Shown: positions 1-16,881 of the stretch, piece by piece
Layout: each line of letters opens with the position of its first letter
Numbering within the stretch: position 1 is the stretch's first letter
Source: a virus
Lineage: Duplodnaviria; Caudoviricetes
DNA: 25,928 nucleotides
Strand: one strand, 5' to 3'
Virus record (IMG/VR): IMGVR_UViG_3300005805_000427
Location: 1 to 25,928 of that record
Position numbers and translations under genes: made by a program
The notes under the pieces: model-generated
Told to the model about the DNA's origin: nothing
Seen by the model: only the letters and a program-made list of their open reading frames with translations
The model's database searches: none

Positions 1-106
1 GGGCAAGGAATCTTTTTACAATTGGGCGGCGGCGCGGGTTGCAAGACCTAGCGCAAAAAAACGGAGCTAGCCCAAAACCCATTCTTCCGACTTGAAAACC
101 GAAGTC

Positions 107-568
107 ATGACGCAGGAAGCGTTGGCGAAAGCGTTGCAAACAACGACGCGCACGCTGCGCGAATGGCAAAAGCGCGAGGACTGGCCGACCGGCGCGAGCG
201 TCGAAGAATTGCTGGCATGGCGCGACGCGGCGGGACTAGGTCGCGTCAAGGACGGCTCGATCGGCGGCTTGAAAGCCGAGCTAATGCGCCGCGACATTGC
301 TTTGCGCGACCTCAAACTCCAGCGCGAGCGCGCCGAGGTAGTCGAGCGCGAGACCGTCCGCGAAATGCTGCGCCTGCTCGGCACGAAGCTTGATCTTCTC
401 CTGCGCCTCAAGCTAGAGGTGGAGCTCGGTCCGCGGGTGGCCGGCAAGTCAGCCGCGGAGGCGAACGTTGAGGGCGCGATCATTCTCGACGAAATCCGCG
501 AAGTGGTGAACGCGAACCTGGCACGCTTCGAGGCGGATGCGATCAAGACGACGGTGGCCGAAGAATAG
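107..568 (+). CDS. terS: Terminase small subunit (Nu1-like, N-terminal winged HTH)
   Basis: MTQEALAKALQTTTRTLREWQKREDWP HTH followed by a coiled coil (LKAELMRRDIALRDLKLQRERAEVVE), as in lambda Nu1-type TerS; upstream of a gpA-type TerL. ATG 107 preferred over TTG 92. Confidence 0.8.
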   Translation: MTQEALAKALQTTTRTLREWQKREDWPTGASVEELLAWRDAAGLGRVKDGSIGGLKAELMRRDIALRDLKLQRERAEVVERETVREMLRLLGTKLDLLLRLKLEVELGPRVAGKSAAEANVEGAIILDEIREVVNANLARFEADAIKTTVAEE

Positions 569-767
569 GCGTGGAAACCTGGGCGCCCGCGCGTTTGCTC
601 TGGCGCTTAGTTGGGCGCCCCTTGAGCTTCGCAAGCACTAGCCTCTGGACCCACTCAGGCGGCAACCTATCGCCCATGATCCACGAATACGCGGTGCGCT
701 CGGGGCAGCCGATACGCCGGACAATCTCCCCAGCCCCCACCCGCTTGCACTCGCTTACAAAGTCCAT
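543..767 (-). CDS. Small HTH (Cro-like) DNA-binding protein in cassette A
   Basis: GAGEIVRRIGCPERTAYSWIMGDRLPPEWVQRLVL resembles a Cro/XRE HTH; divergent from 845..1072 across two palindromes; C-terminus runs through the attC half-site and overlaps the terS 3' end. Confidence 0.6.
   Translation of the reverse strand: MDFVSECKRVGAGEIVRRIGCPERTAYSWIMGDRLPPEWVQRLVLAKLKGRPTKRQSKRAGAQVSTPILRPPSS
593..616 (-). repeat. attC-like half-site (R''/L'' arm only), left end of array
   Basis: GTTTGCTCTGGC-GCTTA-GTTGGGC matches the arm GTTGGCTCTGGC-N5-GTTAG of the three full sites; no partner arm found upstream. Confidence 0.7.
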
Positions 768-787
768 GCCGCAATCCACGCGGAACA

Positions 788-835
788 TTGCACAATGTGC
801 AAGATTGTTCTTGCGCTGCGCTGCACACTGTGCAG
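788..835. promoter_or_regulatory. Two palindromic operator-like sites, TGCACAnTGTGCA, in a divergent intergenic region
   Basis: TTGCACA-A-TGTGCAA (788-802) and CTGCACA-C-TGTGCAG (821-835), both perfect inverted repeats, between the HTH gene (-) and 845..1072 (+). Confidence 0.7.
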
Positions 836-844
836 TCTGAGCGC

Positions 845-1072
845 ATGAAATACGCCGCCCGAATCGAAGCCGAAAAGAAACTCGCTATCGCCGCCGCTGC
901 CATGAAGCGCGCTGAAATGGGAACCGACGAATCCGCCTACCTCGCCGCAGCAGCGGCATGGAAAGCCAGCATCGCGGAACTAGTGTCAGCTGAGATAGCG
1001 CACCCGACCGCTCGCGAGAGCGCCCGCCGCGCAAACATCATCCGTCTGGAAAACCGAGGGCTCGCCGCATGA
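845..1072 (+). CDS. Hypothetical Ala-rich helical protein (cassette A)
   Basis: ATG at 845 just downstream of the palindromes (ORF track opens at 788); stop overlaps next start (ATGA at 1069-1072). Confidence 0.6.
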   Translation: MKYAARIEAEKKLAIAAAAMKRAEMGTDESAYLAAAAAWKASIAELVSAEIAHPTARESARRANIIRLENRGLAA

Positions 1073-1359
1073 GCCCAGCCGAAGCCGAAAACATGGCGAA
1101 AGCCACGCGGATGCGGAACGCCGAGCTGGCGTCCGCTCTGCGGACAATCGCGAGAATCCAAGATGATGACGCGCTGGCCAAGTGGGTGCTCGGCGTTGCG
1201 GCGGAACGCCTCGAAGCCAAGAAGCGTCCCGAGGAGTCTATGTCTTTCGCGGCATACATGGCCTACAATAAAAGAATTTCGACCCAAAACGCCACGCCTG
1301 CCCCGCGGGAACTAGGTCCGCTCGATTGCAAGCGACCGGACCAGCCGGGGCAGGCGTAA
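1069..1359 (+). CDS. Hypothetical protein (cassette A)
   Basis: 96-aa ORF coupled to the previous gene by an ATGA overlap; ends 8 bp before attC1. Confidence 0.55.
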   Translation: MSPAEAENMAKATRMRNAELASALRTIARIQDDDALAKWVLGVAAERLEAKKRPEESMSFAAYMAYNKRISTQNATPAPRELGPLDCKRPDQPGQA

Positions 1360-1367
1360 CTTTATTC

Positions 1368-1486
1368 GCCCAACAAATAAGATGAGCCACGAAGACAGCG
1401 CAAATTTCCAACTGGCATCCGATGCCGGCCCAGCTTCTGAGCAACCCCTGACCGCTGTCGCCGTTGGCTCTGGCGACTTGTTAGGG
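1368..1486 (-). repeat. attC-like site 1 (119 bp)
   Basis: + strand: GCCCAAC-N6-GATGAGCCAC...GACAGCG / CGCTGTC...GTTGGCTCTGGC-N5-GTTAGGG; imperfect hairpin with conserved AAC/GTT core. Confidence 0.85.
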
Positions 1487-1762
1487 CGTTTCTTGTCGCC
1501 CGAACTCCAGCGCCAATTTCCGAAACTAAGCCGGCCCCGAAAGCCAAGGCGCTGCCGGCTCTGCTACGGTAAAATCGAAATCGGGGAGCCGTGCTGCCGG
1601 TGGGAATACCTCGAACCGGGCGAAGGCTACGGCACGTCCTACGCACACCCCGAATGCTACCAAGTCACGATCGATAGCAAGTGGGACGAAGGAGACTGGG
1701 AGTGCTGTTCCCCTGGCGACGTCACTCGCCCTAACCGACAAGATGAGCCACGCCGCAGCTGA
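1382..1762 (+). CDS. Cys/His-rich hypothetical protein, putative zinc finger (cassette B)
   Basis: CRLC...HPEC motif; starts within attC1 (encodes AVGSGDLLG) and stops within attC2 (PNRQDEPRRS). Confidence 0.7.
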   Translation: MSHEDSANFQLASDAGPASEQPLTAVAVGSGDLLGRFLSPELQRQFPKLSRPRKPRRCRLCYGKIEIGEPCCRWEYLEPGEGYGTSYAHPECYQVTIDSKWDEGDWECCSPGDVTRPNRQDEPRRS

Positions 1763-1814
1763 GATGAGCACGCAAAACCCGGCGCCGGCCGTTGGCTCTG
1801 GCGCATTGTTAGGC
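1729..1814 (-). repeat. attC-like site 2 (86 bp)
   Basis: + strand: CCCTAAC-CGACAA-GATGAGCCACGCCG...CGGCCGTTGGCTCTGGC-GCATT-GTTAGGC. Confidence 0.85.
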
Positions 1815-2075
1815 GATTTTGCGGTGAGACGTGGCTGGCGCGCATTTAAGTGTGATGATTGTGGCCACGAATGGGAATGGCCATCGCGCGACCGACACAG
1901 TACAAGCGGCGAAGACTGCCCGAAGTGCAACGCTTGGATTTTCCCTCATTCCAACAGGCCGGATGCGATGCTTCCGTGCGATTCTATGGGCAATCTCCTC
2001 ATTCCGTGGAATGCTTCGCCTAACCGAAAAGATGAGCCACGGCCTGCGCAGCAATCGACAAAGGAAACACCATGA
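1764..2075 (+). CDS. Zinc-ribbon hypothetical protein (cassette C)
   Basis: FKCDDCGHEW...CPKC; ATG 1764 lies 1 nt after the upstream stop (alternative in-frame ATG 1743); begins AVGSGALLG, ends PNRKDEPR... in attC3. Confidence 0.7.
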   Translation: MSTQNPAPAVGSGALLGDFAVRRGWRAFKCDDCGHEWEWPSRDRHSTSGEDCPKCNAWIFPHSNRPDAMLPCDSMGNLLIPWNASPNRKDEPRPAQQSTKETP

Positions 2076-2128
2076 GCAATGAGAAAAACCAATCGGCGCA
2101 GGACGTTGGCTCTGGCGCATTGTTAGCG
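2018..2128 (-). repeat. attC-like site 3 (111 bp)
   Basis: + strand: GCCTAAC-CGAAAA-GATGAGCCAC..CCTGCGC / GCGCAGG..GTTGGCTCTGGC-GCATT-GTTAGCG; the loop contains AAGGAAACACC-ATG. Confidence 0.85.
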
Positions 2129-2473
2129 ATATGTGTTAATTGCAAATACTGGCGGCGCGGCGGGAGATTTGAGCATGTATGGTCTGCAAACGCGAAGCCA
2201 GGCGGCGAACGCTTCACGGTTGGACCCATCACGCGCGCTTTTGATGAGGTGGTCGATCTGCACACTGACCCAAACGAAAAATTCGGAATATGCTTACACC
2301 CGCTCATATCTTGCTGCGGTCGAAATGGGTGGCTTGGGTGGGAGAATAGCAACGACCCTAAGGCGCTAAAAGTGGAGGCATACGACGAGCGCGGCTTCAT
2401 CTCCACGGGCGAGGAATTCGGATGCCGCCATTTTTCCGCTAACTCGAATGATGAGCCACGCCGACCTCTCTGA
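2072..2473 (+). CDS. Cys-rich hypothetical protein (cassette D)
   Basis: CVNCKYW...GIC...FGCRHF; SD-like AAGGA at 2061; ATGA overlap with upstream stop; stop abuts the terL ATG at 2474. Confidence 0.75.
   Translation: MSNEKNQSAQDVGSGALLAICVNCKYWRRGGRFEHVWSANAKPGGERFTVGPITRAFDEVVDLHTDPNEKFGICLHPLISCCGRNGWLGWENSNDPKALKVEAYDERGFISTGEEFGCRHFSANSNDEPRRPL
2437..2460 (-). repeat. attC-like half-site (L'/R' arm only), right end of array
   Basis: CGCTAAC-TCGAAT-GATGAGCCACG matches the left arm of attC1-3; no intact GTTGGCTC...GTT arm downstream (terL begins at 2474). Confidence 0.75.
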
Positions 2474-4258
2474 ATGACCTGCGCTGACGACCTTCTTGCA
2501 AGCCTGCGCCTGCCTCGCCCGGACCGTGCCGCAATATACGACTGGGCGCGACGGCATGTGCAATTGCCGGAGAGCTACGCGACGCCGGGGCCGTTCAACG
2601 TGCGGCTCTCGCCTTGGCTCGTGCCGATCTTCGATGCGCTGCAAGACCCGCTGGTCCGGCGCGTGCATTTCCGCAAGGCGGTGCAGATTGGCGGCACGCT
2701 CGTGGCCGATGTCTGGTTGCCGTGGATTATCGCGAACGATCCGGGCCCGATCTCGTGGACGATGCAGACCGACGAGATGGTTGAGAAGCATGCGAAGACC
2801 CGCTTGTGGCCGTTGCTGGAGCGATGCCGTCCGGTAGCCGCGATGCTACCTAAGCCGGGACCGCACCGGACCACGACGGAGATTTTCTTCGGCGGATTCT
2901 TCCTGACGTTGAACGCGGCGAACCTTTCGACCCAGCAGAGCCAGTCGATCCGGTACAAAATTAACGACGAGCTTTGGCTCCCGCGCTGGCAGGAGATTTA
3001 CGGGCACGCCGTCGCGCGCGTGTCCAAGTTCGAGGAAGTCGGCCGGTCGAAGATATACAACGCGTCGCAAGCTCCGGTGATGGACGCTGAAACCGGCAAC
3101 GTCGAAGACACGAGCTTCCGCAGCGGCGACCAAGGCGAGTGGCACGCGGAGTGTCCGGCCTGCCGGAAGTTGCACCCAGTTGCCTTTGAGCAGATCACGC
3201 AAGACAATCGGCGGGCGGGCCTCGTTTGGGACCGCTCCGCGAAGCGTGATGATGACACTTGGGATGTTGCGCGCGTCGTCGAGACGGTGCGTTTCCGCTG
3301 CATGCATTGCGGGCATGAGTCGCCGGACAACGATGCGACCCGCGCCGGCTGGGCGAAGACTGGCCGCTTCGTGCCGCAAAACCCGAAGGCGTCACGCGAG
3401 GTGCGCTCATTCCGCATCGAGGCGATTGTAAGCAGGCCGATGCGCTTGCTCGCGGAGGAGTGGGCGCACGCCGAGAACACACTCGTGCGAACTGGCGACG
3501 AGTCCGCGAAGATCGAGTTTCGCACGAAGCGCGAGGCGCGACCTTGGGTTGTCGAGAAGAAGGTCGTCAACCTATTCGCGGCAAAGAGCGGCTATACCGT
3601 CGCAACTTATGCGGATGGATCGCCGATAGAAAACGAACGCTTGCGCGTGATGACAATCGACCGGCAGCTCGATCACTTTTGGGTCGAGGTCGGCGCGTTT
3701 CTCGACGGTCCAATATACCGGCAACTCTGGTTCGGTCGCGTTGAGACTCGCACCATGTTGCGCGAGATTCAGAGTCGCTATCGCGTGCCGTCATTCACCG
3801 TCGTGCAGGATCGCGGATATAAGCCTGCGGAAGTTGACCGCGACTGCGTCGAGTTTGGCTGGCGCGGAATGCGCGGCTATGCGCGGAAGTCGTGGACGAT
3901 GCGCGACGAGGCCAGCGGCACGCTGCTCAACTATCCGTTCTCCGAGCCGCAGATCAGCGACTACGCGGGCGGCGATGCGCATTTCTACAACTGGTCAGGT
4001 GACTATTTCAAAGACCTTCTCGCGCTCGCACTAGAGGGAAAAGGCGAGTTGAAGTGGCAGATGCCCGACGACGTGAATCCGTTGTATATTGAGCACCTAA
4101 AGGGTGAGGTGAAAACCGAGATTCGTTCCGGCGTCTGGGAGTGGCGCGAGGTTCGCAGCAACGCGCCGAATCACGGCCTCGACACGAGCGCCATGATGCT
4201 TTGCGTCGCGACCATTGCTGGCGTCCTACGATACGTGCCCAAAACGGACGCGATGTAA
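2474..4258 (+). CDS. terL: Terminase large subunit, lambda gpA family
   Basis: Walker A-like RKAVQIGGT, Walker B RYKINDE, SGDQGEWHAECPAC and CMHC zinc motifs, nuclease acidic motifs (MTIDRQ, VQDRGY, NHGLDT). Confidence 0.95.
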   Translation: MTCADDLLASLRLPRPDRAAIYDWARRHVQLPESYATPGPFNVRLSPWLVPIFDALQDPLVRRVHFRKAVQIGGTLVADVWLPWIIANDPGPISWTMQTDEMVEKHAKTRLWPLLERCRPVAAMLPKPGPHRTTTEIFFGGFFLTLNAANLSTQQSQSIRYKINDELWLPRWQEIYGHAVARVSKFEEVGRSKIYNASQAPVMDAETGNVEDTSFRSGDQGEWHAECPACRKLHPVAFEQITQDNRRAGLVWDRSAKRDDDTWDVARVVETVRFRCMHCGHESPDNDATRAGWAKTGRFVPQNPKASREVRSFRIEAIVSRPMRLLAEEWAHAENTLVRTGDESAKIEFRTKREARPWVVEKKVVNLFAAKSGYTVATYADGSPIENERLRVMTIDRQLDHFWVEVGAFLDGPIYRQLWFGRVETRTMLREIQSRYRVPSFTVVQDRGYKPAEVDRDCVEFGWRGMRGYARKSWTMRDEASGTLLNYPFSEPQISDYAGGDAHFYNWSGDYFKDLLALALEGKGELKWQMPDDVNPLYIEHLKGEVKTEIRSGVWEWREVRSNAPNHGLDTSAMMLCVATIAGVLRYVPKTDAM

Positions 4259-4282
4259 GATTTTTACGCCATGCGCTATGGC

Positions 4283-4522
4283 ATGGCGATGGATAATCCA
4301 TTTTTGGGCATCGACGCGGCTACGCTTTCGACGCTCAAGTCTGAGACGCTGGCGGCAATTCGCGCCTGCTTGCTGAACACGAGCTATAGTCTCAACGGCA
4401 AATCGGTGACTCGCGCCGATCTTGGCAGGCTGAATATAATGCTCGGCCAGATTCAGGCCGCGATTGACGACGCCAATGGAGTCACCGATACGGTGACTTT
4501 TGTCAGTTTCAACGGGAATTGA
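4283..4522 (+). CDS. Head completion / head-tail joining protein (gpW-like)
   Basis: SYSLNGKSVTRADL motif; position between terL and portal as in lambda. Alternative starts 4271 or 4289. Confidence 0.8.
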   Translation: MAMDNPFLGIDAATLSTLKSETLAAIRACLLNTSYSLNGKSVTRADLGRLNIMLGQIQAAIDDANGVTDTVTFVSFNGN

Positions 4523-4529
4523 TACCATC

Positions 4530-6890
4530 ATGGACGCTACGTCTTTCGACTTTCAAAAGGTCATCCAGAATCGTCCTTGGTTCGAGCGTGCAATCGAAAC
4601 CGTTGCGCCTGCCTATGCGCTGAAGCGTCTTGAAGCGCGCATCCAGCGCGAGATGTTTTCGTATAACGCGGCGATGACGGATCGTTTATACGCTCCACGC
4701 CAATACGGACAGCCGAGCGAATCGACGCAGACGGTGCGCGACCGCATCGTGATGATGTGGGAGGCGCGCGACCTCGTTGAGAATTTCCCGCAAGCGCGCG
4801 AGATCACGCGCAAATTTTCGCTCTATTGTACGCCGCAGGAGTTCTCGGCGATGACTGGTGACCGCGCGTACAATAACATCGTGAATGAATACTTTCACGA
4901 CTGGTGCAAGCGCGCCGACGTGACTGGGCGGCACTCGTTCCGCAAGCTCGTGCAGATTGGGTGCGAGGAGCGTCCGGTTGACGGCGACTTCGGATTTGTC
5001 CTTCGTCGTCTCGACAAGGAACTGAAGATCCAGATCGTTCCGGCGACTCGCATCGGCAATCCGAATGCGCTCACGGCGCAGCCTGCGAACTATTATCAAG
5101 GCGTGATCGTCGATGAGTTCGGTCGTCCGGTTGCGTATCAAATCTATCGGGTGACGCGGGATGGTGTATACTTCGATCCCGAGGAAATCCCGGCGGCGAA
5201 TTTCTGTCACTTCTTCGATCCGTTCCGCAGCGATCAATTCCGAGGCGTGTCCGATTTCCACGCCTGCGCGCGGTCGGCTCGGATGCTGTATGGCATTCTT
5301 GAGGCCGAGAAGACCGGCGTGCGCTTCGCTGCGCAGCAGGCGGCACTTGTATTCTCGGACAAGGCGGCGGCGAATCCGCGCAATCTGTTTACGCCGAATC
5401 CGTCGATCCAGTTGCCGAGCGGACAGGCGCAGAAAAACGAATTGTCAGAGATCGGAATGATTCGGTATTTCGGCACCGCTGATCGCATCGAGGTCATGCC
5501 CTCGCGTCCGTCGCAGGCGTTCGCCGGTTTCGTCCAGCACTTGATGCACGAGATCGCAATCGGCATCGGCATACCGCAAGGCGTTCTGTTCGGCACGCAG
5601 GACTTTAAAGGTCCGAGCGTGCGCGCCGAGTTCGCAGCGGCGGATCGCGTGTTCGTGCGGCATCAGGGCGTGCTCGTGGACAAGGTTCTCGATCCAATCA
5701 AAAATGCGGTCATCCTCGACGCCATCGCGCGCGAGGAAATTCCGCCGCCTCCGCTACAGACTGGCGAGACGATGGTGCAAGCTATCCGTCGTGCTACGCG
5801 CGGCGAATGGCGATTTCCGCCGAAGATCACAATCGACGTCGGCCGCGAGAGCGCGGCGAACATGAACGAGAACCGGCAAGGCGCGAAGTCATTGCAGGAG
5901 ATCGCCGCCGAGCAAGGCACCGACGCTTTCGGTCGTCTTGAGCAGATCGCGATGGAGGCGGCATACGTCAAGGAGCTGGCGCAAAAGTACGAGATTCCCG
6001 AAACAGCAATTCGGCTGGTGACCAATTCGCTTCCGAGCACTCCAGCCGCTGCCGCCGCTGCTGGCGACCAGGTCGCAACGTCTGCCGCGCAAGCGCAGCA
6101 AGCCGCATCTCCCGGTCAGTCTGCCTCCACCGAGAACATCGCCGAAGGCGCAACGCCCGACGCTCCGGTCGAACAGGTCAACGCCTCGGCCGATCTGATC
6201 ACGGTCAACTTCGCGGAGGATTCATACGTGCCGAATGATCGCATGGCCGCGAACGCTCGCCGCGCGCTTGAAGTTCGCGCCAGTAAACCGCCATCTCAGC
6301 GCGGCATGACTTCGGTCGGCCTGGCTCGCGCTCGTGATATTCAAAACAAGAAGCCGCTCTCAGCCGATACCGTTCGCCGGATGAAGGCATACTTCGACCG
6401 GCACGAGATCGATAAGCAAGGTTCGACGTGGGACGAGCAAGGCAAAGGATGGCAGGCATGGAACGGATGGGGCGGCGACGCCGGAAGAACGTGGGCGAAC
6501 GCAATCGTCGAGCGGCTCAACAAAGCCGAGCGCAAGGAAGCCGCGTCAACCGAGCAGCAGCGCAGACTTGAATCCGCCGACGTTGTTGCGATCACGCTCG
6601 AACAGCGGCCAGCCGATCCGCACGCATGGCTCAATGCCGTCGAGCAATACCGCAAGGAGCTTTCGGTCAAGGCAGCGACCGCGACCAATCCGATTCTCGA
6701 CAAGCCGCTCGTGCAATTCGCCGAGCCGAAGAAGTTTGATCTGCCGACGCCAGTCGCAGGCGAGACGCACGATGACTTCATGGCTCGCTGCATGGCCGAT
6801 CCAGTAGCAACCGCAGAGTTTCCAGACGCCGCGCAACGGAGCGCGGTCTGTATGAAACAGCACGAGGGAAAACTTCAGAAAAAGAACTGA
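4530..6890 (+). CDS. Portal protein, lambda family, with long C-terminal extension
   Basis: APAYALKRLEAR, ARDLVENFP, GVIVDEFGRPVAYQI, RSDQFRGVS motifs; core about 500 aa followed by an Ala-rich linker and extra domains. Confidence 0.92.
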   Translation: MDATSFDFQKVIQNRPWFERAIETVAPAYALKRLEARIQREMFSYNAAMTDRLYAPRQYGQPSESTQTVRDRIVMMWEARDLVENFPQAREITRKFSLYCTPQEFSAMTGDRAYNNIVNEYFHDWCKRADVTGRHSFRKLVQIGCEERPVDGDFGFVLRRLDKELKIQIVPATRIGNPNALTAQPANYYQGVIVDEFGRPVAYQIYRVTRDGVYFDPEEIPAANFCHFFDPFRSDQFRGVSDFHACARSARMLYGILEAEKTGVRFAAQQAALVFSDKAAANPRNLFTPNPSIQLPSGQAQKNELSEIGMIRYFGTADRIEVMPSRPSQAFAGFVQHLMHEIAIGIGIPQGVLFGTQDFKGPSVRAEFAAADRVFVRHQGVLVDKVLDPIKNAVILDAIAREEIPPPPLQTGETMVQAIRRATRGEWRFPPKITIDVGRESAANMNENRQGAKSLQEIAAEQGTDAFGRLEQIAMEAAYVKELAQKYEIPETAIRLVTNSLPSTPAAAAAAGDQVATSAAQAQQAASPGQSASTENIAEGATPDAPVEQVNASADLITVNFAEDSYVPNDRMAANARRALEVRASKPPSQRGMTSVGLARARDIQNKKPLSADTVRRMKAYFDRHEIDKQGSTWDEQGKGWQAWNGWGGDAGRTWANAIVERLNKAERKEAASTEQQRRLESADVVAITLEQRPADPHAWLNAVEQYRKELSVKAATATNPILDKPLVQFAEPKKFDLPTPVAGETHDDFMARCMADPVATAEFPDAAQRSAVCMKQHEGKLQKKN

Positions 6891-6892
6891 CG

Positions 6893-9800
6893 ATGGACAC
6901 GCTCACTCAAGTCGAACGGCTCATTGAACTGGCGATCATTCAGCGGTCGGAATTGCGCCGACTCGTGGAGGAATTGCCGCAATTGAAGGCGCATCTCAGC
7001 GAGGAGATCGAGCGCACGTTCGAGGAAACGGAACCGCAACTGCGCGCCGAGTTGGAGGAGTGGACGACGAAACAGACTGCCGACAAGACTGCGGCACTCG
7101 GTGCTGCTCTCGAAGCGAAGATCATCGAGCTTGCAAACAGCCTCGAGCGCAGCACGCAGGCGAGATACAACGCGATCATCGCCGAGCGCGACGAGAACGC
7201 ACGCCTTGCGTCTGCGGCTGAAGAGAAGATCGCCGAGCACGCGGCCAGCCTTCCCGGCGCTGTGAAGGAAATCGTCACGGCAGAACTCGCTCGTTTCCCG
7301 CGTGCTGGTGAAATCGACAAGCTGCGCAAGGAATTCGCAGAACCGAAGACGCTGAACCCGCGCGGAAAGTGGCGTCCTGATGTTGTCTATAACAAGCTGG
7401 ATTTCGTCACGATCAACGGCGATTCATACGTGTCCGCGAAGGACGACAATCGCACGCGACCGACGCGCAGTTCGTCGGACTGGACTCTTGTCGCCGCGCG
7501 AGGAACCGGCGGCGGCGGTGGTCCGACTTCGATCACCGACTTTCTTCCGACTCCCGGCAACGGCGAGCTTCTGATCGGCAACAACGGATCGTACTCCGCT
7601 GCGCCGCTGACTGCTGGCATCGGCATCAATATCACGAGCGCGCCGGGATCAATCACCATTGACGCTTCTGGAGCGCAGGAAACGCTGACCGCAACGATCA
7701 CGAATGCCGAATCCGTTGCGATCACTCGCGGTCAAGTCGTGTATGCGTTCGGAGCAACCGGCAATCGGATGTCCGTCAAGCTGGCGTCGAATCTAAGTGA
7801 TGCCACGTCCGCGAAAACCATCGGCGTCGTGAGCGACAATTCCATTTCTGCTGGTGGAGTCGGTCAAATCACCTGCGTCGGCGTTGTAGACAATCTGATG
7901 CTTGGAAGCTATAACGAAGGCGACACGCTCTATCTCGGCGCAACTGCTGGAACATTTACCAACGTTAAGCCATATGCTCCGAATCATCTCGTGTATGTTG
8001 GCATCGTAGAGCGCGCCAACAACGGTAACGGCCAACTGTATGTGCGCATCCAGAATGGCTACGAACTTGACGAGATTCACGACGTACAAATCAACGCGCC
8101 GAAGCTCGCCGGCCAGGTCATCGTTTACGATCAAACAAATGACCTCTGGAAAAACGCGCGGATCAACGCTGGCGCAGGCGTCTCGATAACGAATGGTGAT
8201 GCCTCGATCACGGTTGCCGCTGACGTTGTAAGCGTCTTCGGAAGGACCGGCTCCGTCACTGCGTCAAGTGGCGACTATTCTGCCGCGCAGATCACGAACA
8301 CGCCAGCGGGCAGCATTACCGCGACCGACGTTCAAGCGGCGATCAACGAACTAGATTCGGAGAAGCTCGCTAAGGCGTCGAACCTAAGTGACCTCGCGGA
8401 CGTATCGACGGCGCGGAACAATCTCGGACTCGGCTCGGCTGCGCTGGAAAGCACGACCTACTTTATCCAGACCGGACAAGCCGCAGGCGGCGACCTAACG
8501 GGCAATTATCCCAACCCTTCGCTGACGATCAGCGGAGTGATTGCTGGCAACTACGGTTCGGCATCCAGCGTGCCTTCGATCACGATTGACGCGAAGGGCC
8601 GCATAACTTCCGTCACCGCGCCGAACATTCAGATCATCGAGTCGCAGGTCACCGGCCTGACGAGCGCGCTGGCAAGCAAGATTCCAACGACGGAGAAGGG
8701 CGCGGCAAATGGCGTGGCGACGCTTGATGCTGGCGGCAAGGTTCCGACAACGCAGTTGCCCGATTCCGTTCTCGGTCAGCTCTACTACGAGGGCACGTGG
8801 GATGCCTCGACGAACACGCCGACGCTCATCAATCCTCCGAGCGCATCAACTCGCGGTGATTATTACATCACGAGCGCGGCTGGCTCATTCGCCAGCATCA
8901 CCTTCGACGTCGGCGACTGGATTGTATCCAGCGGTTCCGATTGGCAGAAGGTGGATAACACCGACGCGGTCGCATCCGTTTTCGGTCGCAATGGAAACAT
9001 CGTTGCGGCAATCGGTGACTATACTGCCTCGCAAGTCACGAATGTTCCGGCTGGAGGGATCGTTGCGACGACGGTGCAGGCGGCGATTGATGAACTCGAT
9101 ACTGAGAAGCTCGCGAAGGCGAGCAACCTGTCGGATGTATTGTCGACCTCGACGGCGCGTCTGAATCTCGGCATCGGAACGATGGGCGTGCAGGACTCGA
9201 ACAGCGTTGCGATTACGGGCGGCTCGATTAACGGAACGACGGTGGGCGCATCGTCGCCGAATACCGGAGCGTTTACTAGTCTCACGAGCAGCAGCACGAC
9301 GACGCTGAACGGCACCACGATCCCGGCGTCCTCCACCCTGCTCACCAGTGGCGGCGCCCTGGGTACGCCTTCGAGCGGCACCCTGACCAATGCGATCGGA
9401 TTGCCTGTCTCGACCGGCCTCAGCGGCCTGGGCACGGGCGTGGCAACGGCCCTTGCGGTCAACGTGGGCAGTGCTGGGGCCTTGGTGACGAATGGCGGCG
9501 CCCTCGGCACGCCGTCGAGCGGCACGGTCACGAACTTTACCGGCACGGCCTCGATCAACATCAACGGCACAGTCGGCGCAACGACCCCGAGCACGGGCGC
9601 GTTCACGTCGCTGAGTGTGAGCGGCGGTGCATATATTACAGGAGCGGTAAACATTGGCTCAACGGGAGTCGGCCTTGAGACCGGCGTGGCTTCATCCGTT
9701 AACGTCCTTCGCGGATTTGATCGCACGACCATTGCCTACGCGCCGGTTTCGATTCGCAGTTCGACCTTTGACTACAAAAGTGATGAGACTTCCACAGTGT

Positions 9801-9970
9801 TGTCGGCCAGTTCGACCGGCCTCGCCGTCACCGGCACGTTGAGCAGCACAGGCGCACTCGCAATCGGCAACACCGTGAACACCGTAAGCCCGACGAGTCC
9901 GAACCGCACCGTGACAATCGTTATCGGTGGCACGACGTACTATCTTCACGCAAAAACGACCAATGATTAA
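6893..9970 (+). CDS. Large fibre/adhesin-like virion protein
   Basis: 1025 aa: N-terminal coiled coil, NPRGKW...Y...D.V...GDSY...DWTLV module, G/T/S-rich beta repeats, KASNLSD...ARNNLGLG and KGAANGVATLDAGGKVP fibre motifs. Confidence 0.75.
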   Translation: MDTLTQVERLIELAIIQRSELRRLVEELPQLKAHLSEEIERTFEETEPQLRAELEEWTTKQTADKTAALGAALEAKIIELANSLERSTQARYNAIIAERDENARLASAAEEKIAEHAASLPGAVKEIVTAELARFPRAGEIDKLRKEFAEPKTLNPRGKWRPDVVYNKLDFVTINGDSYVSAKDDNRTRPTRSSSDWTLVAARGTGGGGGPTSITDFLPTPGNGELLIGNNGSYSAAPLTAGIGINITSAPGSITIDASGAQETLTATITNAESVAITRGQVVYAFGATGNRMSVKLASNLSDATSAKTIGVVSDNSISAGGVGQITCVGVVDNLMLGSYNEGDTLYLGATAGTFTNVKPYAPNHLVYVGIVERANNGNGQLYVRIQNGYELDEIHDVQINAPKLAGQVIVYDQTNDLWKNARINAGAGVSITNGDASITVAADVVSVFGRTGSVTASSGDYSAAQITNTPAGSITATDVQAAINELDSEKLAKASNLSDLADVSTARNNLGLGSAALESTTYFIQTGQAAGGDLTGNYPNPSLTISGVIAGNYGSASSVPSITIDAKGRITSVTAPNIQIIESQVTGLTSALASKIPTTEKGAANGVATLDAGGKVPTTQLPDSVLGQLYYEGTWDASTNTPTLINPPSASTRGDYYITSAAGSFASITFDVGDWIVSSGSDWQKVDNTDAVASVFGRNGNIVAAIGDYTASQVTNVPAGGIVATTVQAAIDELDTEKLAKASNLSDVLSTSTARLNLGIGTMGVQDSNSVAITGGSINGTTVGASSPNTGAFTSLTSSSTTTLNGTTIPASSTLLTSGGALGTPSSGTLTNAIGLPVSTGLSGLGTGVATALAVNVGSAGALVTNGGALGTPSSGTVTNFTGTASININGTVGATTPSTGAFTSLSVSGGAYITGAVNIGSTGVGLETGVASSVNVLRGFDRTTIAYAPVSIRSSTFDYKSDETSTVLSASSTGLAVTGTLSSTGALAIGNTVNTVSPTSPNRTVTIVIGGTTYYLHAKTTND
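8228..9180 (+). repeat. Diverged internal duplication (about 70 aa) in the fibre gene, about 8228-8437 and 8972-9180
   Basis: SVFGRTGSVTASSGDYSAAQITNTPAGSITATDVQAAINELDSEKLAKASNLSD vs SVFGRNGNIVAAIGDYTASQVTNVPAGGIVATTVQAAIDELDTEKLAKASNLSD. Confidence 0.9.
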
Positions 9971-14545: not shown

Positions 14546-16246
14546 ATGCGCTTTTCGCTTTGCGTGATATGCGGCAACGAGTCGCACCACATAGGCCAGA
14601 TGCTCGCAGCATTTGCTCCTGCGTTTGACGAGCTTTCGCTCGTGCGCGCAATCGGCAAGCGTGTGCCTGATGGAACAAAGGAGATTGCCGAGGAGTGGTG
14701 CCGATCAAACGGCAAGGCGTTTGTTTTCTCCGAGTATATTAACGAGCCGACCGCACGCGATTGGGATCACGTCGATTCATTTGCTCGCGCTCGCAATGGC
14801 GCCTTTAAGCAGGCCAAAGGCGAATGGCTTTTCTGGGCCGACTGCGACGACGTGGTGCGCGGTGCCGAGAATCTACGCCGCACGCTGGAGCAAGTTCCGG
14901 CAGACGTGCAAATGGTGCGCTTTTCGTATGACGTCAAAGGGTCGAACAAATGCTTGTTCCGCGAGCGAGCGATTCGCCGAGACGCTTTCCACTCCGGTCG
15001 AGTCTGGCATCACGATGTACACGAGAACCTGCTGATTCTCGCTGGCGACAAGCATCTCGATCTCGGCGACGTTGTCTGGGTTCACGCACCAAAAGAAATC
15101 AAGCAGGAGAACCGAAGGCGCAATCTCCGCATCCTCGCAAACTCGGTTCGCGAATGCGCGACGCAGTATTTCTACATTCATCAGGAGCACTACTGTAACC
15201 AGAACCGCGAGGCCGCGCTGGAGTTTGGTCGCCTCGCGTTGCAGTTTCCGAATCTTCAACCGGCTTTCCGATACGAGGCGTTGCTGAATTGCGCTCGTCT
15301 GACTAATTCCAGCCGCGAAGCGAAGTCTCTTTTGCTCGAAGCGCATGGCGTTTTCCCGTGGTGCCGAGAGGCATTCGCCGGTCTTGTGCTGCACGCCTTC
15401 GAGCAGAAGGACTATTCAATGGCGGTCTATTGGGCGCAGCGCATGACGGAATTGCGCGAGCCATTGAGCGACAAGCGACCGTGGACGCACGAGGCGAAGT
15501 GGTACGGCTGGGCCGGATACGATCTTGCCGCTCGCGCATTCCGAGCCGAAGGAAACAAGGCGATGGCGGCGGTTCTTCAGGCTCAATACTATCTCGGCAA
15601 GACTCCGAAGATTTCGCTCCTGCACGCAACGCGAGGTCGATCTTCAATGGCGGTTTCAACGCGGGATATGTGGCTCAATGCGGCCAGCGATCCGACGCGC
15701 GTTGAGCATATCTTCGCGGTCGATGAGGACGATGCCGTCAGCGTCGAGATGGCGAAGCAGTTCATCTCCGTCACTTCGTCGGACAAATCGTGCGTCGCTG
15801 CGTGGAATCTCGCTGCGGAATCTGCGCGCGGAGAAATCCTCGTACAACTCTCGGACGATTGGGTGCCATGCGCCGGATGGGACGAGAAGCTGCTAGATCT
15901 CGTGAAGGATCGCGACGCTCACTCCGAGCCATTCGTGATCGCGCCGAGCGATGGAAGCCGAAAGGACGACTTGCTCTGCATGGCGATCTTGTCGCGTGCG
16001 CGCTACGAGCAGCAAGGGCATCTGTTCTTTCCTGAGTATGAGTCTGTATTCAGCGACAACGAATTCTCTCACCGAGCATGGCGCGACGGCATCGTGATCG
16101 ACGCGAGAGATCGCCTGCGCTTCGATCACCGGCATCCGGCTTTCGGCAAGGCGAACATGGACAAGACATATTCGCATACGAATTCCCGCGAGCGATACGT
16201 GCGCGGCGAGGCACTATTCAAGTCACGCAACCCAGACGCGAAATGA
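14546..16246 (+). CDS. Double glycosyltransferase: GT2-like, TPR, second GT-A domain
   Basis: SLCVICGNE, FARARN, WLFWADCDD, VHENL (GT2); helical TPR-like middle; ISLLHATRGR, AVDEDD, VAAWN, LVQLSDD (second GT-A). Confidence 0.88.
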   Translation: MRFSLCVICGNESHHIGQMLAAFAPAFDELSLVRAIGKRVPDGTKEIAEEWCRSNGKAFVFSEYINEPTARDWDHVDSFARARNGAFKQAKGEWLFWADCDDVVRGAENLRRTLEQVPADVQMVRFSYDVKGSNKCLFRERAIRRDAFHSGRVWHHDVHENLLILAGDKHLDLGDVVWVHAPKEIKQENRRRNLRILANSVRECATQYFYIHQEHYCNQNREAALEFGRLALQFPNLQPAFRYEALLNCARLTNSSREAKSLLLEAHGVFPWCREAFAGLVLHAFEQKDYSMAVYWAQRMTELREPLSDKRPWTHEAKWYGWAGYDLAARAFRAEGNKAMAAVLQAQYYLGKTPKISLLHATRGRSSMAVSTRDMWLNAASDPTRVEHIFAVDEDDAVSVEMAKQFISVTSSDKSCVAAWNLAAESARGEILVQLSDDWVPCAGWDEKLLDLVKDRDAHSEPFVIAPSDGSRKDDLLCMAILSRARYEQQGHLFFPEYESVFSDNEFSHRAWRDGIVIDARDRLRFDHRHPAFGKANMDKTYSHTNSRERYVRGEALFKSRNPDAK

Positions 16247-16881
16247 ACGTTCCCGAGCATTATCAAATCGACGCGAAGATAGGCGCGCTTCGGTCGAGGG
16301 ATCGTCGCGTGACTGCGGTTTACGATCACGCCTACGTAGCACGATATGAGAACTATCCACAGCGTGAATTGTCGGCGATCAGAGCGAAGCTGGTGCATCG
16401 CTTTTCCGAATTTGCGATCAATGTTTGCGACGTAGGCTGCGGCACAGGTGCTTTCCTCGAAGAGATGAAACGCACGCAGCCGGGAATCGTTTGCTGCGGT
16501 CACGATGTTTCGCCTTACCCGCTTCCGTCTTTTATCAATCGAGTCGGCGCAGACTGGCACGAGTTGCAATGGGACACGGTAACGTTCTTTGATAGTCTTG
16601 AGCACTTCGATTCGCTCGACTTCGTTGAGCATCTGCGCGCTCGTGCGGTGATCGTATCGCTGCCGTGGTATCATCCGTACATGGGATCGGAATGGTTCGC
16701 TCGATGGAAACATCGCAGGCCGGGAGAACATCTCTGGCACTTCACGCCGGTAAGCCTGACGAGACTATTCGCGCAGGCTGGATTCCGTCCGGTCTATGTC
16801 GGCAATCCCGAAGATGAAGTGCGAAAGCCGGATTCGGATTCCTGCGCTCCAAACATTCTGACGATGGCATTTCGCCGATGA
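16243..16881 (+). CDS. Class I SAM-dependent methyltransferase
   Basis: VCDVGCGTGAFL, FFDSLEH, EHLWHFTPVSL; ATG 16243 overlaps upstream stop. Confidence 0.88.
   Translation: MNVPEHYQIDAKIGALRSRDRRVTAVYDHAYVARYENYPQRELSAIRAKLVHRFSEFAINVCDVGCGTGAFLEEMKRTQPGIVCCGHDVSPYPLPSFINRVGADWHELQWDTVTFFDSLEHFDSLDFVEHLRARAVIVSLPWYHPYMGSEWFARWKHRRPGEHLWHFTPVSLTRLFAQAGFRPVYVGNPEDEVRKPDSDSCAPNILTMAFRR

Follow-up and report, generated by a model that had tools for sequence, protein, structure and literature searches.

Reversed integron cassettes in the terminase region of a tailed phage, with attC sites that probably serve as coding connectors

We describe an array of integron cassettes between the terminase genes of a tailed phage (Duplodnaviria; Caudoviricetes), IMG/VR record IMGVR_UViG_3300005805_000427. 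The window analysed is the whole stretch of 25,928 nucleotides, a linear phage contig estimated to be 70% complete. Its attC recombination sites carry their genes on the attC bottom strand, the reverse of the canonical arrangement, and this layout is genuine and general; it represents a variant form of integron cassette. Judging from sequence comparison, the sites probably act as standard connectors for integrase-driven shuffling in a phage operon.

The array holds three full sites, attC1 (1368-1486), attC2 (1729-1814) and attC3 (2018-2128), all on the + strand, with inferred crossovers at 1373/1374, 1734/1735 and 2023/2024. Two half-sites flank them: an R''/L'' arm of unassigned strand at 591-616, which marks the left array end and lies outside the span of an earlier note on this DNA, and a + strand R'/L' arm at 2437-2476 (arm 2437-2460). 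The full sites have RYYYAAC...GTTRRRY cores with inner L boxes in an imperfect hairpin. They fold as long hairpins on the + strand, with z-scores of -1.2 to -2.4, so that the fold alone is only modest evidence. Both arm motifs occur in four copies each in the contig, against chance means of 0.08 and 0.33, and all copies fall between the presumed terS and terL. With three full sites in 760 nucleotides, the array has the composition of a cluster of attC sites lacking an integron integrase (CALIN), namely at least two attC within 4 kb on one strand and no intI nearby. Positions 1310-2594 recur, with zero differences, in a contig that another sample of this study yielded.

Each of the four cassettes of the contig is bounded by two R-box heptamers that are exact complements (permutation p ~5e-5; at the left end, 610-616 complements 1368-1374), and such complementarity is seen in 52 of 64 phage cassettes, compared with 9.5 by permutation. 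We take such complementary ends as the signature of integron cassettes. Scanning bacterial genomes for one full site returned 119 stretches, mostly from Opitutae and other Verrucomicrobia and many of them long arrays, and we assign the predicted hairpins to the attC family of the chromosomal integrons of these bacteria. An integron integrase above the TIGR02249 cut-off is encoded in four of five array-bearing bacterial genomes. In two of them (G001 and G002) IntI adjoins the array on the strand equivalent to the contig + strand; the contig + strand is therefore the bottom strand of attC, and genes of canonical polarity would be expected on the minus strand. The + strand has one extra T in its 3' arm, which would agree with this call when set beside the aadA7 bottom strand in the supplement of PMC9892861. 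An Rfam search gave nothing near the gathering score, and blastn of the array against cultured phages gave no match. A first viral scan with a 14-base arm was set aside: most of its 121 loci were chance matches, and they were filtered by requiring a complete site.

For the wider comparison, arm matrices were built and used to map arms, with the threshold set so that 1.0 Mb of background produced 2 hits. We retained loci bearing one or more full sites and clustered their cassette bodies at 70% identity, which gave 64 viral, 194 bacterial and 4 contig clusters; the coding strand was called by a Markov model for which long flanking genes served as the training set. Bottom-strand coding was found in 56 of 64 viral bodies versus 26 of 194 bacterial ones (Fisher p 1e-27), and at a margin of 5 in 44 of 47 versus 15 of 164. 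Of the eight viral exceptions, three belong to a single host-type array (L126). Metagenome contigs without a label showed bottom-strand coding in 23 of 168 cases. Matches to PHROG families, among them methyltransferases, phosphoadenosine phosphosulfate reductases and unknown phage families, were obtained for 9 of 68 bodies on the bottom strand and for none of the 68 on the top strand. Rather than a promoterless top-strand gene upstream of its attC, as in canonical polarity, these cassettes have bottom-strand genes downstream of it. The earlier note had proposed that the + strand open reading frames (ORFs) B, C and D are the conserved genes, antisense to canonical cassettes. This holds: they have homologues, the substitutions between ORF B and its relative in L701 number 24/22/46 by codon position, a third-position bias, and the PHROG matches favour the same strand.

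Two contigs of the viral collection (L126 and L146) carry host-type arrays with uniform loops, mostly canonical orientation and differing cassette orders. The idea that reversed cassettes of the phage type also occur within host arrays found no support, as the 15 antisense-called host cassettes have host-type loops wherever a full site is present; most of them lack a full-length ORF. Top-strand recombination was likewise dismissed as the cause of the reversed layout, since it would be expected to flip gene and site jointly.

In the phage arrays each site lies ahead of the gene that it serves, and the start codon and a leader of 10-35 residues come from the loop or the L arm of that site. The preceding gene crosses the inferred crossover (AA/C in the R box) in a single, fixed frame, and its tail and stop codon are provided by the site that follows. 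In the contig, ORF B (1382-1762, +, 126 residues) starts at an ATG within the L arm of attC1 and has a Cys/His-rich core between an attC-coded leader and tail. ORF C (1764-2075, +) encodes 103 residues, or 110 from the in-frame ATG at 1743, with a zinc-ribbon-like core. ORF D (2072-2473, +, 133 residues) consists of a small Cys/His domain, complete in itself, to which attC sequence adds an 18-residue leader and a short tail. The coordinates of these ORFs and of terL, as well as the arm peptides listed earlier, were reproduced, and the site does supply start codon, leader, tail and stop. The statement that each ORF ends inside the next attC, in the frame reading Pro-Asn (PN), needs one correction: ORF D ends in the half-site at 2437-2460, which has no partner arm.

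How general these frames are was counted in 43 single-ORF viral cassettes, with the contig and L126 excluded. An ATG lies upstream of the R box in 35 of them, and the arm is then crossed as LALA (20), VGSG (13) or RWLW (2). The N-terminal frame is thus not fixed, and the VGSG peptide shared by the three ORFs of the contig does not extend to a general rule. The downstream crossover is read through by 27 of the 43, every one in the PN frame; the remaining 16 end before it, seven at an R-box TAA and nine earlier. In ordinary phage genes, 57-65% of R-box-like AAC motifs fall in the PN frame, and 27 of 27 against a 65% null gives p 9e-6, with shared ancestry handled by clustering only. The frame at the downstream crossover is therefore kept across homologous arrays, as had been predicted, and is not random. 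That classical cassette ORFs end before or at R'' is correct for 112 of 139 host cassettes; 25 others end inside the attC and two beyond it.

Stops and starts are closely linked at three junctions of the contig, exactly where the earlier note placed them: TGA-G-ATG at 1760-1766 in attC2, ATGA at 2072-2075 in attC3, with AAGGA at 2061-2065, and TGA-ATG at 2471-2476, leading from the last half-site into terL. The fourth, TAA-G-ATG at 1378-1384 in attC1, has its TAA (1378-1380) in the right PN frame, yet this codon terminates no ORF, because ORF 1069-1359 halts seven codons earlier at the TAA of 1357-1359. Among 36 cassettes with a complete site of their own, 24 have an in-frame ATG, and a PN-frame stop falls at -1 (9) or +4 (8) from it in 17 of the 24 (14 of 21 excluding the contig). 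Two nulls gave means of 5.2 (maximum 13 in 20,000) and 6.4 (maximum 14 in 5,000). Counted by loop family, a tight junction is found in 33 of 60 phage families, against a loop-shuffle mean of 16.1 (maximum 24 in 2,000). Stop and start are thus nearer than chance, as claimed. The started frame stays open beyond the arm in 29 phage families versus seven host families, and phage loops are more A-rich (0.28 versus 0.20 in the host) and less folded. The RNA folds of attC1, attC2 and attC3 reach -44, -31 and -35 kcal/mol, so that initiation would plausibly benefit from read-through of the hairpin by the upstream frame. The further claim, that any cassette order gives coupled ORFs, is overstated: only 33 of the 60 phage loop families have the tight junction, 16 of the 43 cassettes end before the crossover, and in this contig ORFs B and C alone have complete flanking sites.

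Twenty related phage records were searched for an integrase, five with PF00589 and fifteen with TIGR02249. An IntI-like gene is present in five of them, and in three of the eight near-complete ones: G015:C1:36011-36970, G018:C1:59441-60397, G008:C1:8358-9329, G021:C1:27339-28250 and G025:C1:42113-43000. Three of these score over the cut-off, one does so only with neighbouring matches counted, and one stays below. A sixth (L569, in G002) belongs to a prophage, and the Opitutaceae chromosome that carries this prophage has a canonical integron as well. The IntI-like proteins share 33-42% identity with each other and with host IntI (three phage copies compared). Each phage gene comes directly after the last RYYYAAC and shares the strand of the cassette genes, and most are preceded by a short common motif after that RYYYAAC with an attI-like look. 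Integrase, attI-like motif and attC are therefore placed canonically, and only the genes are reversed.

Traces of exchange come from several places. G021 contains two copies of one cassette, with no difference over the 368 nucleotides from one AAC to the next; one copy stands beside intI, with a changed protein tail. Excision followed by reinsertion at attI would produce such a pair. In pairwise comparison of 100 phage sites, one pair shares loop and downstream gene, one the upstream gene only, and none the upstream gene and loop; host arrays give 12 to 1 for loop plus downstream gene versus upstream gene plus loop. These pairs fit recent exchange at the AA/C crossover, the junction with the fixed frame. 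On a longer time scale, loops become joined to new genes as well. As a hint only, a contig of run X6 departs from the present sequence at 1376, two bases past the crossover, with 13 letters following.

We propose that IntI, either the host's or a phage copy off this contig, would cut the folded bottom strand at AA/C. Start codon and gene would then move together, and the next cassette would supply tail and stop; cutting there would standardise the frame at the cut junction and leave it free at the uncut one. A ribosome ending the upstream gene might unwind the mRNA hairpin and restart on the next gene, so shuffled arrays could remain translated from the phage's own promoter with no need for the integron promoter Pc. 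In this contig, cassettes B and C alone would be excisable. Rather more tentatively, and with about as much doubt as belief, we suggest that Verrucomicrobia phages may run an integron class of their own, comprising a phage IntI, an attI-like site, reversed cassettes, order-independent translation connectors and self-made cassettes.

Several observations weigh against the connector reading. The first junction (1359 to 1382) is uncoupled in the array as it stands, the contig's own four cassette bodies have no PHROG match on either strand, and neither IntI nor an attI-like motif was found on this 70%-complete contig; it is not a complete integron, with intI and attI beside the array. Where class 1 sites have their conserved extrahelical G, this attC family has a T, host sites included. 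Twelve of the 36 cassettes with a complete site of their own have no ATG in the called frame, and 27 of the 60 phage loop families lack a tight junction. A control frame used by no crossing ORF appears 'coupled' in 13 of 24 cases because the L arm itself contains ATGA, and a stop-start motif in 15 of 50 host loop families (phage versus host p 0.012) means that part of the motif stems from the arm consensus. As for exchange, the G021 duplicate is known from one assembled contig, and recent exchange at the crossover rests on two pairs among the 100 phage sites. Two other pairs share only the downstream gene (gene start), with different loops, and 39 share only the loop, with different genes on both sides; some of the 39 come from host-like metagenome contigs.

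Part of this would follow if the sites derived from attC and exchange proceeded mainly by homologous or illegitimate recombination between arms, frame and coupling being a general filter on operon swaps and not an adaptation to IntI. The lack of IntI in 15 of the 20 phage records and in this contig, the many lone arms, the 39 loop-only pairs and the terL relatives that are coupled without attC all agree with such an account. We nevertheless find it unlikely, as R-box complementarity is maintained cassette by cassette, rare heptamers included, the breakpoints of the duplicate and of the shared genes lie at AA/C, the frame is fixed at the AA/C junction only, and IntI stands at the array end in five records. 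The cassettes might instead be real and the connector pattern a by-product of IntI inserting attC DNA at AAC near gene ends, with no selection needed. An AAC is most often an in-frame Asn codon, the PN frame being common in ordinary phage genes (57-65%); ATG followed by A makes ATGA unaided; a cassette-free relative of ORF B already ends in RPN; GWT suffices for secondary sites of IntI (10.1101/2022.09.11.507474); and the host arms carry the stop-start motif in their 15 of 50 families. What makes this quite improbable is that 27 of 27 PN exceeds even the 65% null, that coupling exceeds loop-shuffle nulls which keep composition, and that the frame is open past the arm in 29 phage families versus seven of the host. 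It is scarcely credible, finally, that a host integron fragment was captured backwards, with the minus-strand ORFs as the genes and the + strand ORFs as their shadows. Minus ORFs of 103-134 residues do exist, and canonical host-type arrays occur in some viral contigs (L126 and L146), but it is the + ORFs that have homologues and third-position bias. The minus frame over ORF B contains four stops in L701, its closest DNA relative (none in L702), with alignment scores far below those of the + frame, and the top strand has 0 of 68 PHROG matches (the minus ORFs were searched with Pfam and PHROG only). The minus-strand ORFs, named in the earlier note as the case that would overturn it, thus find no support as the conserved genes.

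The connector reading can be set beside several known systems. Qi et al. 2023 (PMC9892861) described CALINs in virulent phages, which are likewise integrase-free attC clusters with DNA methyltransferase cargo, and reported that IntI1 recombined five of six phage sites tested. The parts of that article used here contain no description of bottom-strand genes, starts within sites or a fixed frame at the crossover. One of its phages, TJE1, has canonical top-strand genes, with two of three ORFs ending within the site. In another, Polaribacter phage P12002L, the stated bottom strand of attC1 is the coding strand, at a site that the article could not verify. In our own inspection of P12002L (L707, 29200-30060), the stated attC1 bottom strand lies on the coding strand of the methyltransferase genes and attC2 faces oppositely; a further copy of the attC2 motif is found at 37241.

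The sedentary chromosomal integrons of Opitutae and other Verrucomicrobia share with the phage arrays the arm sequences, the R-box complementarity and the orientation of intI relative to attC. They differ in having top-strand genes (168 of 194), GC-rich hairpin loops and genes that usually stop before or in R''; phage arrays point toward attI and intI, whereas these host arrays point away. ORF-11 and ORF-17 of attI1 and the short ORFs of attC (PMC8876359) also span the crossover in frame, use a stop of the next cassette and involve reinitiation across a hairpin. Those are short top-strand leader peptides, termed 'anecdotal' in 10.1101/2024.03.26.586746; here, unlike there, it is as a rule the cargo proteins themselves that begin and finish within the sites, and the opposite strand encodes them. 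In the inverted-integrase integrons of Treponema (Cury et al., 10.1101/030866) intI is co-oriented with the cassette genes as well, but there the integrase is flipped relative to attC, while here intI is on its usual strand and the genes are flipped. The strand selectivity of attC has been described as a means of orienting genes to Pc (PMC11023631, 10.1101/2022.09.11.507474). A literature search, in which subscription papers were not covered, found no paper on reversed phage cassettes.

Phages, then, use integron sites with reversed genes and with the site as coding sequence, some together with an integrase of their own. Integrons have been regarded as devices of bacteria and, more recently, as stores of genes directed against phages. 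If the connector reading is true, phages would own a programmable shuffler of accessory genes, in which the C-terminus of a protein varies with cassette order. Cassette and cassette-free forms of one phage gene offer a handle on cassette genesis; if the site indeed replaces the native start and stop of a gene, such pairs would make cassette creation directly testable. For annotation, VGSG or LALA N-termini and PNxxDEP C-termini of phage proteins should be read as recombination-site sequence, not as domains.

ORF B provides such pairs. Its four homologues are conserved from R box to R box and part ways directly after PN, their tails being different. The family occurs in cassette-free form, with no arms, in L701 and L704, wrapped in a different attC-like family with the same reversed layout (judged by eye) in L703 (~2950-3400), and possibly in a third such family in L702 (~2800-2930). 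It would seem that these phage genes were made into cassettes more than once. The loop family of attC1, the site that opens ORF B, recurs in other phages beside different genes. ORF C matches Pfam Zn_ribbon_8 with E 1.7e-4, under that model's cut-off; it has one homologue, without arm peptides, and a locus search gave nothing beyond generic zinc ribbons. For ORF D, a profile-free full scan found 23 relatives (an earlier search returned only ORF D itself). Most of the full-length ones begin at the first CxxC, the point where ORF D leaves the R box, and finish a few residues past GCIH. Three stretches of a 2,242-residue protein (P0008) match ORF D residues 43-74.

Cassette A, to the left, has its body at 610-1374 (+) and contains ORFs 845-1072 and 1069-1359, which overlap by ATGA, as well as a non-coding gap that could house a promoter; a scan of 500-2500 for sigma-70 consensus promoters found 0 sites. 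It also includes part of a minus-strand ORF (543-788, 81 residues), divergent from ORF 845-1072 and spanning the left half-site, with the region 790-845 between the two; by eye it looks like a small DNA-binding protein, and it has no Pfam or PHROG match.

The array is bounded by the ORF at 92-568 (+), from its position the likely terminase small subunit, which has no family match in Pfam or PHROG, and by the large-subunit gene terL at 2474-4258 (+; Pfam GpA_ATPase, E 9e-27; phrog_15). In 80 terL relatives a homologue of the 92-568 ORF overlaps the terL start in 40, inserts of 300-4,300 nucleotides separate the two genes in 28, and 12 have no terS match; none of the 80 carries attC arms of this family. 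An ORF ends at -5 to +2 from the terL start in 18 of 21 distinct insert junctions of these attC-free relatives. Coupling to terL is a habit of the terL clade, satisfied here by the half-site at 2437, and not an invention of attC. The earlier note proposed that the sites keep ribosomes moving to terL; in the present contig this could hold for part of the way at most, as the chain that starts at terS has a break at 568-845 and a loose link at 1359-1382. The gap itself is a variable insertion hot spot in these relatives (L171-L250), with 0 or 300-4,300 nucleotides. In many inserts the last ORF is short, rich in Lys, Arg and Gly, and has its stop at the terL start; repeated A/C-rich leader elements occur in some.

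Further along the contig, the portal ORF (4500-6890) extends about 400 residues past the portal domain. The following ORF (6893-9970, 1,025 residues) has tail-family matches despite its place among head genes, and glycosyltransferase and methyltransferase genes lie at 14546-16881, between the capsid-region and tail genes.

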